Shown piece by piece: positions 12,330-14,957 of a stretch of 40,352 bases of DNA. The notes beneath the pieces are model-generated. The model was not told the origin of the DNA. It saw only the letters and a list, made by a program, of their open reading frames with translations, and made no database searches. Location: the sequence record PQ850600.1; one strand, given 5' to 3'. The stretch's first letter is position 1; the number at the start of each line of letters is the position of its first letter. The translations under genes were made by a program, and so were the position numbers. The stretch comes from Escherichia phage Dewey.

Positions 12330-14957
12330 ATGGCTAATTACCGTGATTTGTTAGAGCAGGCTGGCGCACGTTACGGTGTGCCAGAAGGGTTGATGACTGC
12401 ACTGGGTGCCAAGGAGTCTTCTTACAACCCTGCCGCAGTAAGCTCCGCCGGGGCTGTAGGATTGACTCAGGTCATGCCTGGGACATGGCGTGATATGGGT
12501 TATACCGATGAGCAAATGCAAAACCCCGAATATCAGGCTGACGCTGGCGCGCGCTATCTGGCAAAGATGTACCAGCAGTTTGGTAACTGGCGTGACGCTC
12601 TTCAGGCTTATCACGACGGTCCCGGCAACGTTATGAAGGCAAAGCGTGGTGAATATACGCCAGGACCTGAAGGCCGAGGTTACGTTGATGATCGCTTTGC
12701 TCAATGGGCGGGTGACCCGGTGACAGACTCAACAGTCGAACAGCGCGCCACCTCTGCAAAGGTACATCCTCAGCAAGACCCTAACAACCCGTTTGCACAA
12801 CTGGAAGCACAGTCATCCGAACAAGTATCGGCATCAGGTGTGCAGTCAGACCCAAATAATCCATTTGCTCAGATTGAGCAGCAGGCAGCCAGTCAGCAGC
12901 CACCTCAACCCGTAAGTTCTGTCGCACCGAAACCTGTTCAGCAACAAACAGTTAATCAGGCCAATAATGAACCAGCACGTGAAGAACCATCATTGATGCA
13001 ACAAGCTGGCGATTGGCTCACAGGTGGTCAAAGTGCAGGGCAAATTGCAGAGCAGGCTGGTCGTGGTCTGGTAAACATACCATTTGACGTATTGCAGGGT
13101 GGCGCAAGTCTAATTAATGCAATCAGCCAGGGGCTTGGTGGCCCCAAGGTTTTGGATGATGTTTATCGCCCTGTCGATCGACCGACAGACCCTTACGCAC
13201 AAGCCGGTGAAACAATTGGTGGGTATCTCCTGCCAATTGGCGCAGCGGCAAAAGCTGCTGGAGCGCCAGCAAAGCTCGCAGGAGACATCGGTTCCGCAGG
13301 AAACATGATTGCCGGTTCTCTTGCTGATGCTGCAAATCAGGAGGGTGATTTTGCACAAAATGCTGCCATTAACGGTGGTATCAATATTGGTGCTCAAGGC
13401 GTTCTTTCAGGTGTCGGGCGCGTTATTGCGCCAAGGGTTTCACAGGCTCTTGGTGGTGCAGCACTGAATTCTGCTAATGATGTTTCCAGGATGGCAAAGT
13501 CAGGTGCTGGGCGTCAGTCAATTGCCAGTCAGGCCGCTAATGTGTCCGAAGATGTAGCAAAAGCGGCTGAGTCTGCTGGAATTGATATAAACGCATTAAC
13601 ACCAGGAATGCGATCTGGAAGTCGTGGAATTGCACAAGCCGAAGGCGCATTGGCATCAACACCAGGGATTGTTCAGGATGCCCATCAGGCGGCATTTAAC
13701 GAAATATCATCAAAGTTAAGTCGAAACCTTGATGAATTTGGGGCCGCATCTGGAACGGCATCAGAAAAAAGTGCGGCTATAAAACAAAGGATTCTTCAAA
13801 ATCTTGATCAGATGAAGGATGCTGAGCGCGCGGCATGGGATGACGTGCGGTCAACAATGCCAAATCAAAAAGCAAGAATGCTAAATGGTAATGCCGTTAT
13901 TCAGGCAGAGCGATCTGCTGGCATACCGCTTACTCCTGAAATGAAACAGTTTGTTCAGGCAAACAATCAAGGTGGAGTAACATTTGATGGCATGAAAGCA
14001 TGGAGAGCGAAATTTGCTGATGCGGAGCAAAAATATAAGCGTAGCGGAGAGGCAAATGCGGCAAGGAGAGCAGGGGAAATACGTCGGGCAATTACTGATG
14101 ATATGCGCACAATGGCGGAAAACGGCGGATTTTTTGATGACTGGCAAAAAGCTAATGATCTGTCTAAAGCGAGACTATCCGCACAAGAGAGTGCAGAGTC
14201 TGTTTTTGGGCGTGATTTGGCAACAGATGCACTGATTACGAATGGAGTAAAATCTCTTCAATCATCGTCAGCTAAAGGTCTTAATGGTCCTGCTGGATTC
14301 CATTCTATGATCCGCGCGCTGCCAGAATCAGAGCGTGTTCCTGCTATATCATCAATGTTGCAGGATGCTATCTCGCATGGTGTACGTGGTGGCAAATCTG
14401 ATGCAGCAGGAATTAACCATATCGCAGGGATACTTACACCACAAAATGTAAAAGCCATTAGCAGATATTCCTCAGAACTTGGAAGAATTGCTGATGCATA
14501 TGGCACTCTTGCAAGAGCAGCAGTGAAACCTCAGCAGTATATTGAAAGAACAGGGAGAACTGCCAATGTACTACGCGATCTGGATGCTGGTTTATCCAAC
14601 GTCACATCAACAGTGTTAAATGCAATTGCCAACTCAACATCAGGTGCCATTGTTGGTGGAGCAGGAGGGGGCATTGCAGGCGCTGCCGCAGGTGCTTTAG
14701 TTGGCGCCGGGTTAAAAGGCGCTGTATCTAAAATTGCCACCACACGTAGTGGTCGATATGCGATAGAGAAAGCTGTTCAGGAAGCCACCAAAGCAGTAAG
14801 AGCAGGCGGAAGCAAAGAAGCATTAGCGGCGGCGGAACGCAGATTTATGGCAAATAAAGCCGCCGTAAAAGCAATACGCGATGCTATTGGTAGCGATGAA
14901 TTCAATCGCTTGTCGAGAGCTGGTATTGTCGCCTCGTTAAGCGGTATGAATGAATAG
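12330..14957 (+). CDS. ejection protein (gp16 position) with N-terminal lytic transglycosylase (SLT) domain
   Basis: 875 aa; N-terminal [38 protein letters not shown] is the SLT catalytic motif (ES...GLxQ); long Ala/Gly-rich remainder; last gene before tailspike. Confidence 0.8.

Follow-up and report, generated by a model that had tools for sequence, protein, structure and literature searches.

The gene at positions 12330-14957 (+ strand) of Escherichia phage Dewey (PQ850600.1; the window analyzed here is the whole stretch of 40,352 nucleotides (nt)) begins with ATG and encodes a protein of 875 amino acids (aa), in which an N-terminal lytic transglycosylase (SLT) head is joined to the body of a gp16-position ejection (E) protein. 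We consider it probable that this protein, Dewey gp16, is the ejection protein of a P22-like temperate podophage and that its SLT head cuts the peptidoglycan locally, so that a conduit of gp20 and gp16 can reach the inner membrane in a manner resembling gp16 of phage T7. Dewey is a sibling of phages Huey and Louie and was isolated on E. coli K-12 with a restored O16 antigen (PMC12243541). An 875-aa protein in the gp16 position had been proposed in an earlier note that was based on the DNA letters alone; the open reading frame (ORF) is present in the ORF list as described there, and the neighboring genes confirm its position.

According to Pfam, sequence matches to Slt70 and T7 gp16, an AlphaFold2 (AF2) model and Foldseek, the head (aa 1-130; 12330-12719, + strand) is an intact family-1 lytic transglycosylase (SLT/GH23-like) domain with a predicted glycan-cleaving activity. 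The Pfam SLT model (PF01464) matched aa 7-110 with E=2.8e-25 and 88.6 bits, compared to a gathering cut-off of 21.3. The motifs on which the earlier note had based its SLT assignment were found in place, with GAKESSYNP at aa 26-34 and GLTQVMP at aa 44-50, and AYHDGPG was located at aa 93-99. These motifs contain GLTQ (aa 44-47) at the position of GLMQ and AYHDG (aa 93-97) at the position of AYNxG, and the Asn-to-His variant of the latter is conserved across the phage family. The catalytic glutamate was also present on alignment: Glu29-Ser30 of Dewey gp16, the E-S motif with the predicted catalytic codon at 12414-12416 (+ strand), aligned with the catalytic Glu478-Ser479 of E. coli Slt70 (1qsa), and Glu29 aligned with Glu37 of gp16 from the T7-like phage BA14. 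The SLT assignment thus passed both refutation tests of the earlier note, which had named a missing profile match and a missing catalytic Glu. Among solved structures, Slt70 was the best sequence match of the head (E=6.5e-11), and the match to T7 gp16 was weaker (E=7.6e-4; T7 gp16 aa 11-126 aligned to Dewey gp16 aa 3-112). The AF2 model, which was built on a 23-sequence family alignment, reached predicted local distance difference test (pLDDT) values of 87-98 for aa 1-130. When the model was compared with the PDB by Foldseek, the head alone found matches. The N-terminal domain of T7 gp16 from the periplasmic tunnel (7k5c_B) ranked first, followed by Slt, MltE, MltF, and MltC with root-mean-square deviations of 1.4-2.0 A, and the matches to Slt and MltF over 103-113 residues showed the lysozyme-like alpha-helical fold. 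Although the catalytic fold and motifs of the head are those of E. coli Slt70, MltE, and MltC, these bacterial proteins act as housekeeping autolysins that are exported, bear signal peptides or lipoboxes, and have other accessory domains, whereas the Dewey head is fused to an ejection protein. No N-terminal signal peptide was found in Dewey gp16, which fits a delivery through the tail.

Sequence comparison identifies the remainder of the protein as a genuine gp16 homologue. Residues ~200-875 share 98% identity with gp16 of epsilon34, CUS-3, and Louie, and PHROG 770 ('DNA transfer protein') matched aa 108-835 with E=1e-231 in a profile search, in which phrog_21143 ('lytic tail fiber protein') also matched aa 1-486. 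Both PF26808 (Phage_P22_gp16) and PF01464 are precomputed for P0001, a protein 99% identical to Dewey gp16; the local Pfam copy did not report the PF26808 match on Dewey gp16 itself, and NCBIfam had no model above cut-off for Dewey gp16 or gp20. The 'DNA transfer protein' of Huey (XPK41494) is identical to Dewey gp16 over all amino acids (100%). The order of the virion module, gp10-gp26-gp14-gp7-gp20-gp16-tailspike, is P22-like, with gp10 (PF11134), the needle protein, gp14 (PF11039), gp7 (PF25688), and gp20 (PF16928) upstream of gp16 and a tailspike with the head-binding domain PF09008 downstream. As in P22, the gp7-gp20-gp16 cluster, with gp16 as its third gene, has the head-completion genes on one side and the tailspike gene on the other. 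Within this cluster, gp7 (10296-10988, + strand; E=5e-134) is followed by the 443-aa gp20 (10998-12329, + strand; E=2.6e-68), which ends in the C-terminal tail ...RYGYLPSLGQ and whose stop codon directly abuts the gp16 start codon in a TAAATG junction.

A long ORF of this kind could also arise from an assembly or annotation artefact that joins a separate transglycosylase gene to gp16. Beyond the unusual length compared to P22, nothing speaks for such an artefact, and it is refuted by the same uninterrupted ORF in Huey, Sf101, IME10, phiKp_30, Lumpael, at least 67 complete E. coli chromosomes, and many metagenomic contigs, so that we assign it practically no probability.

The N-terminus of gp16 is exchangeable among P22-like phages. 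The gp16 proteins of P22, epsilon34, CUS-3, HK620, and Louie belong to the same family and occupy the same position as Dewey gp16, but they carry short N-terminal peptides of ~30-55 aa (MKVTANGKTF..., ~30 aa, in P22 and epsilon34; MAKAWKDV..., ~55 aa, in CUS-3, HK620, and Louie) and are accompanied by different gp20 tails, whereas a ~200-aa SLT head plus linker forms the start of gp16 in Dewey, Huey, Sf101, IME10, phiKp_30, and many prophages. In the comparison with HK620, which the earlier note had suggested, the body was 75% identical and MAKAWKDV... stood in place of the SLT head. P22 gp16 is 609 aa long, in agreement with that note ("about 609 aa"). Its view that the SLT head enlarges the Dewey protein relative to P22 holds for a net gain of ~170 aa; the rest of the difference stems from a longer body type, as epsilon34 gp16 already has 708 aa.

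In complete E. coli genomes, the SLT head was detected at ≥99% nucleotide identity in 70 of 5,426 genomes, where it is joined to at least three gp16 bodies with resulting protein lengths of 797, 875 or 911 aa. Some gp16 of the P22 family was present in ~660 of the genomes, and the segment conserved among the gp16 classes (see below) was matched in 619-660. Hence, ~11% of the E. coli prophages with a P22-like gp16 possess the SLT head and ~89% do not have this head type. The intact head-bearing ORF was also found in Shigella phage Sf101, in IME10, and in Klebsiella phage phiKp_30. Sf101 gp13 (911 aa), the IME10 and phiKp_30 proteins, and the 797-aa E. coli prophage proteins share head, linker, and a twin DPNNPFAQ segment with Dewey at ≥98% nucleotide identity and are accompanied by the same 443-aa gp20, but their gp16 bodies differ after aa ~206-300. 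Decayed remnants of the module, which were either truncated gp20/gp16 pseudogenes or SLT fragments beside unrelated prophage genes, were observed in several E. coli chromosomes (L013 of E. coli PSJ-23, H180, H182, and H183).

The Dewey allele itself appears to be the product of a single homologous crossover inside a segment common to all classes (gene nt ~780-850). Binned identity to Sf101 was 100% up to gene nt ~780, and identity to epsilon34 and Louie was 98-100% from nt ~841, which places the crossover approximately at 13110-13180 (+ strand), with an Sf101-type donor for the head and an epsilon34/CUS-3-type donor for the body. This head/body chimera is rare: none of the 5,426 complete E. 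coli genomes spanned the junction, two protein clusters of 875-876 aa were found among the matches listed in a search of 5.8 billion sequences, and one of 72 IMG/VR loci contained the chimera, which is also present in Huey. The SLT head as such occurred in 12 of these 72 loci, a fraction conditioned on a gp7 at least 99% identical to that of Dewey; an apparent SLT in a 663-aa protein of the MAKAWKDV type was discarded, because it stemmed from an overly permissive search pattern.

The fusion of SLT and gp16 is not confined to close relatives of Dewey. When 1.84 billion representative proteins were searched exhaustively with phmmer, many proteins with a length of 850-1,033 aa matched the head as well as the body. 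Pfam SLT was detected in 16 of 23 full-length family representatives, a fraction that is inflated, as SLT is part of the query. All 16 SLT-bearing representatives, which share 22-59% identity, have kept the catalytic Glu. Conservation in the family alignment is highest in the SLT domain and above all in its catalytic-motif region, and the head is under purifying selection. Directly upstream of gp16, gp20 was present in all ten representatives with a recovered upstream flank (the contig of an eleventh, P0157, is too short to show the context); gp7 was also found on the contig in nine of these ten, and a tailspike with the P22 head-binding domain was located downstream in most. The guanine-plus-cytosine (GC) content of the loci with divergent SLT-gp16 modules ranged from 0.47 to 0.61. 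An SLT-gp16 in a P22-like module is likewise encoded by Salmonella phage Lumpael and, in a metagenome-assembled genome, by a Lumpael-like prophage. Lumpael gp43 (Murrayvirus, 1,008 aa) and the divergent 850-1,033-aa proteins have the same arrangement of N-peptide, SLT, linker with an aromatic motif, and body in the same operon, and the Lumpael gp20 tail (...YGFLPEGL) is homologous to that of Dewey. However, the Lumpael-type proteins are only 27-40% identical to Dewey gp16 and start with a ~30-aa extension that contains a motif copy at residues 3-8 and is absent from Dewey. In sequence comparisons, SLT behaves as an optional insert behind a short N-terminal peptide: P0122 and P0158 start with MDVRLPNG...PEGTT, which is similar to the start of P22 gp16 (MKVTANGKTFNFPDGTS), but contain SLT, whereas P22 does not. 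The SLT head is a mobile, recombining module, and its fusion is ordinary for the gp16 family.

Behind the head, Dewey gp16 continues with a low-complexity linker rich in Q, P, and S (aa 131-216; 12720-12977, + strand; Q+P+S = 41% of the residues), which is predicted to be disordered (pLDDT <50) and lies in a region of low confidence in the AF2 model (aa 133-376). As the earlier note had observed, the linker contains the peptide DPNNPFAQ twice, at aa 150-157 (12777-12800, + strand) and aa 174-181 (12849-12872, + strand). An exact 8-mer repeat arose in 12 of 20,000 shuffles of Dewey gp16. Six of eight third-codon positions are different between the two copies, but none of the eight amino acids (6 synonymous, 0 non-synonymous differences). 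Therefore, the peptide and not the DNA is conserved, and the pair is an old duplication whose amino acid sequence has been kept constant. Owing to the synonymous differences, the pair was missed by a repeat search on the DNA. The next segment (aa 217-375, including PTDPYAQAG; 12978-13454, + strand) is conserved among all gp16 head classes, with 70% identity between aa 221-375 and aa 53-191 of P22 gp16 (E=1e-62). It forms a local conservation peak in the family alignment, and its pLDDT is low in the monomer model. The gp16 body proper (aa 376-760; 13455-14609, + strand) is all-helical in the AF2 model, with pLDDT values of 72-93 for the helices (aa ~380-750), and no solved structural relative of it was found by sequence or by Foldseek against the PDB. 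Close to the C-terminus, a hydrophobic segment rich in Gly and Ala (aa 770-805; 14637-14744, + strand; Kyte-Doolittle maximum 1.63, G+A 48%) is the only strongly hydrophobic stretch and thus the sole candidate for membrane insertion. AF2 confidence was low for the Gly/Ala-rich stretch at aa 755-794.

The core of the DPNNPFAQ repeat belongs to a pair of short aromatic motifs that recurs in the gp16 family. In 28 gp16 sequences, the pattern N-x-F-[ADE]-[QE]-[FLI] or GPWxxY occurred 29 times, compared to 0.14 occurrences expected from shuffles, and the motifs were almost always present exactly twice per protein; the homologues examined included P0139-P0168, L008, and L016. The two copies are alike within one protein but unlike between lineages (NIFDQF/NVFDQF, NMFAEF/NMFAEF, NPFAQF/NPFAQF, and in Dewey NPFAQL/NPFAQI). 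Usually the first copy is situated at residues 3-8 and the second after SLT, whereas Dewey gp16 is missing the N-terminal copy and has both copies after SLT. The sequence DDRFAQW at the C-terminal edge of the Dewey SLT domain (aa 120-126; 12687-12707, + strand) is related to the twin motif and corresponds to a family-wide D-x-RF-x-QW. No twin motif was detected elsewhere in the Dewey proteome. In P0144 (L038:3001-5106), a gp16 of 701 aa without SLT, two NFFDQFDE motifs flank a different insert of ~110 aa (GNIDIHNRPIVKNPDGSI...) at the SLT position, which suggests a cargo cassette.

Since in many lineages the twin motifs bracket such a cargo domain, they might be processing sites that free the SLT head as a periplasmic enzyme; alternatively, the head could act in lysis, in lysis from without or in competition. 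According to the P22 record, the host protease OpdA processes the N-terminus of gp7, which provides a precedent for the processing of E proteins. In Dewey, however, both motif copies are situated behind SLT and do not bracket it, and no protease site is known for the motif. Furthermore, gp16 is part of the late virion operon without a terminator before the tailspike gene, and Dewey possesses a complete holin-endolysin-Rz cassette with a separate endolysin (36609-37085, + strand; phrog_90, E=1.6e-63) between holin and Rz, both identified by Pfam matches; therefore, the SLT head is not the lysis enzyme. Taken together, we regard a released or lytic enzyme as highly unlikely.

The tail of gp20 co-varies with the N-terminus of gp16 in at least six classes, with the relevant stretches of Dewey at 12288-12326 and 12330-12365. 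A gp20 tail of the type ...YG[YF][LM]P... pairs with a gp16 starting with MAN..., ...GGDPSxPNSWRx with MAGPWE..., ...VDWxSxN with MDVxLPNG..., ...SKSGIxFTVE with MKVTANGKTF..., ...FSSLWGD with MAKAWKDV..., and ...KYLGGQ with MAYSREQL... (loci compared: L002-L011, L016, L031-L039, and L040-L123). Among 80 IMG/VR loci with a gp7 at least 99% identical to that of Dewey, the 72 informative loci, which represented four classes, contained no discordant pair, even though gp20 and gp16 occurred in several length variants within classes. In all SLT-head phages gp20 is 97.5-99.8% identical, and this gp20 was paired with the head in 12 of 12 IMG/VR SLT loci. The C-terminal half of gp20 was contiguous with the SLT head in 66 of 71 E. 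coli genomes, and the other five were fragments or pseudogenes. An apparent exception to this linkage, H181, was rejected as a decayed prophage in which both genes are truncated. The co-variation may reflect a contact between gp20 and gp16, or equally the linkage of adjacent alleles between conserved recombination targets. We thus rejected it as proof of a physical interaction, because adjacent non-homologous alleles between such targets explain it equally well.

Considering this co-inheritance, the head could mainly be a structural dock of gp16 on the gp20 tube, similar to the wings and tape of T7, with a catalytic activity that is vestigial or irrelevant to infection. The gp20 type and tail were always inherited together with the gp16 N-terminal class (72/72 in IMG/VR, 66/71 in E. 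coli, and in the divergent lineages), heads without SLT fill the same position, and phages without SLT infect the same host. Yet the catalytic Glu and all SLT motifs were retained in 16 of 16 representatives and the catalytic-motif bin was the most conserved one, which would not be expected for a purely structural domain, and the linkage itself could simply result from non-homologous alleles that lie side by side with conserved recombination targets around them. A head that serves only as a dock thus appears unlikely to us, albeit less so than a released enzyme. A broader and still tentative idea is that the gp16 N-terminus is a lineage-specific docking cassette. The twin motifs, which change together in each protein, and the class-matched gp20 tail might act as a 'docking code': like the molecular tape of T7 in function, they would hold gp16 on the gp20 tube in the trans-envelope channel. 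The domain between or beside the motifs (SLT in most lineages, the P0144 insert, or nothing in P22) would be an exchangeable periplasmic cargo. The twin motifs could instead hijack a host periplasmic protein.

For the local cutting of peptidoglycan by an ejected Dewey gp16, which we favor, T7 provides the closest model. The first 156 residues of T7 gp16 form the transglycosylase 'wings' of the gp15 periplasmic tunnel and precede an extended 'molecular tape', and the transglycosylase is required when the peptidoglycan is highly cross-linked (PMC8954989; PMC5380687). In P22, gp10 serves as the template on which gp7*, gp20, and gp16 assemble one after another into a ~50-nm trans-envelope channel (PMC13622523). 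From homology and the T7 analogy, we infer that Dewey gp16 would be packaged into the virion and leave it through the tail once gp7 and gp20 have been ejected, that it would be muralytic in vivo, and that it would contribute to DNA entry. The SLT head would cut glycan strands of the peptidoglycan around the growing conduit, the linker and the conserved segment, which are disordered alone, would fold against gp20, and the helical body and the Gly/Ala segment would engage the inner membrane. The proposal of the earlier note that the SLT head helps DNA delivery across the peptidoglycan is thus supported by analogy, because in T7 gp16 the same arrangement is accepted to have this role.

T7 gp16 (internal virion protein D, 'peptidoglycan transglycosylase gp16'; PDB 7k5c, 7eyb) is, like Dewey gp16, the product of the last and largest gene of a three-gene ejection operon, with an SLT domain at the extreme N-terminus that is followed by an extended region and a body reaching the membrane or cytoplasm. 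However, only the Dewey head is detectably related to T7-type proteins, and its 35% identity to BA14 gp16 represents a weaker match than that to Slt70. The 745-aa remainder had no sequence match beyond aa 112, and whole-chain Foldseek to 7eyb_I gave a probability of 0.51 and template modeling (TM) scores of 0.10-0.13. By this comparison, Dewey gp16 would work like T7 gp16 without being a member of the T7 gp16 family.

Several observations weigh against the proposed role of the head. Louie has the same host as Dewey and a 98%-identical gp16 body, but no SLT head. As Louie infects without it and ~89% of the P22-like E. coli prophages also do not have this head, the activity is not essential. Dewey further encodes a homologue of the tail accessory factor gp4 (7126-7719, + strand; PF11650, E=2.2e-59), and P22 gp4 is a published virion-associated lysin (PMC5380687), so that the two could be redundant. 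Like the Dewey head, P22 gp4 has a proposed virion-borne muralytic function at infection, but it is a neck component that is not ejected and contains no SLT. Moreover, no sequence or fold homology of the gp16 body to T7 gp16 was detected, and the T7 analogy thus rests on the head and the gene order. Finally, motif III of the head is AYHDG in place of the canonical AYNxG.

The SLT-gp16 architecture is already visible in databases. RefSeq/PGAP labels these proteins 'lytic transglycosylase domain-containing protein', the Sf101 records read 'transglycosylase', and the Lumpael record has a lysozyme-like/SLT note. The Sf101 paper notes only a difference between its injection module and the CUS-3 one and does not mention the transglycosylase domain. 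In the literature covered by our search, which did not include key older work on P22 ejection, we found no paper describing the architecture. Transglycosylase-like N-termini of gp16 have reportedly been noted by Casjens. A 2022 review stated that P22-like phages lack the gp16 transglycosylase, and the SLT-gp16 proteins of P22-like phages contradict this generalization. A conserved and apparently active transglycosylase resides on gp16 in a considerable minority of P22-like phages and prophages and in most of the divergent lineages sampled. As T7 has its transglycosylase at this position too, the proposal that the P22 and T7 ejectosomes are functionally equivalent gains support. Huey and Dewey with the SLT head and Louie without SLT, which has a 98% identical body and the same tailspike, share one E. 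coli K-12 O16 host and offer a tractable natural comparison.

No tRNA or Rfam matches were found in the window. The tailspike gene follows gp16 almost directly, and the interval 14958-15181 contains no terminator-like site. The sieA/mnt/arc/ant (immI) region, which P22 and epsilon34 contain between gp16 and the tailspike gene, is absent there in Dewey, Huey, and Louie. The longest tailspike ORF begins at 15086, and its probable true start is Met33 (15182-17080, + strand), as PF09008 covers aa 33-145 of the long ORF. The 32-aa in-frame extension (15086-15181, + strand) looks like a Tat/Sec signal peptide, and the ATG at 15182 is preceded by AAGG. The Huey and Louie records annotate this long form, whose start was probably called wrongly.

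The integrase ORF of Dewey (17320-18513, 397 aa) differs in length from the Huey integrase (1,071 nt). A gene for a 173-aa HNH endonuclease (5058-5579, − strand; PF13392, E=3.9e-22; phrog_99) separates the scaffold gene (4146-5057) from the coat gene (5647-6942), and the local GC content dips to 0.43 there. The Huey coat gene is located ~600 bp earlier in its record, and the HNH insert is apparently absent there. In Dewey, the HNH gene has the appearance of a free-standing homing endonuclease that has inserted into the late operon.

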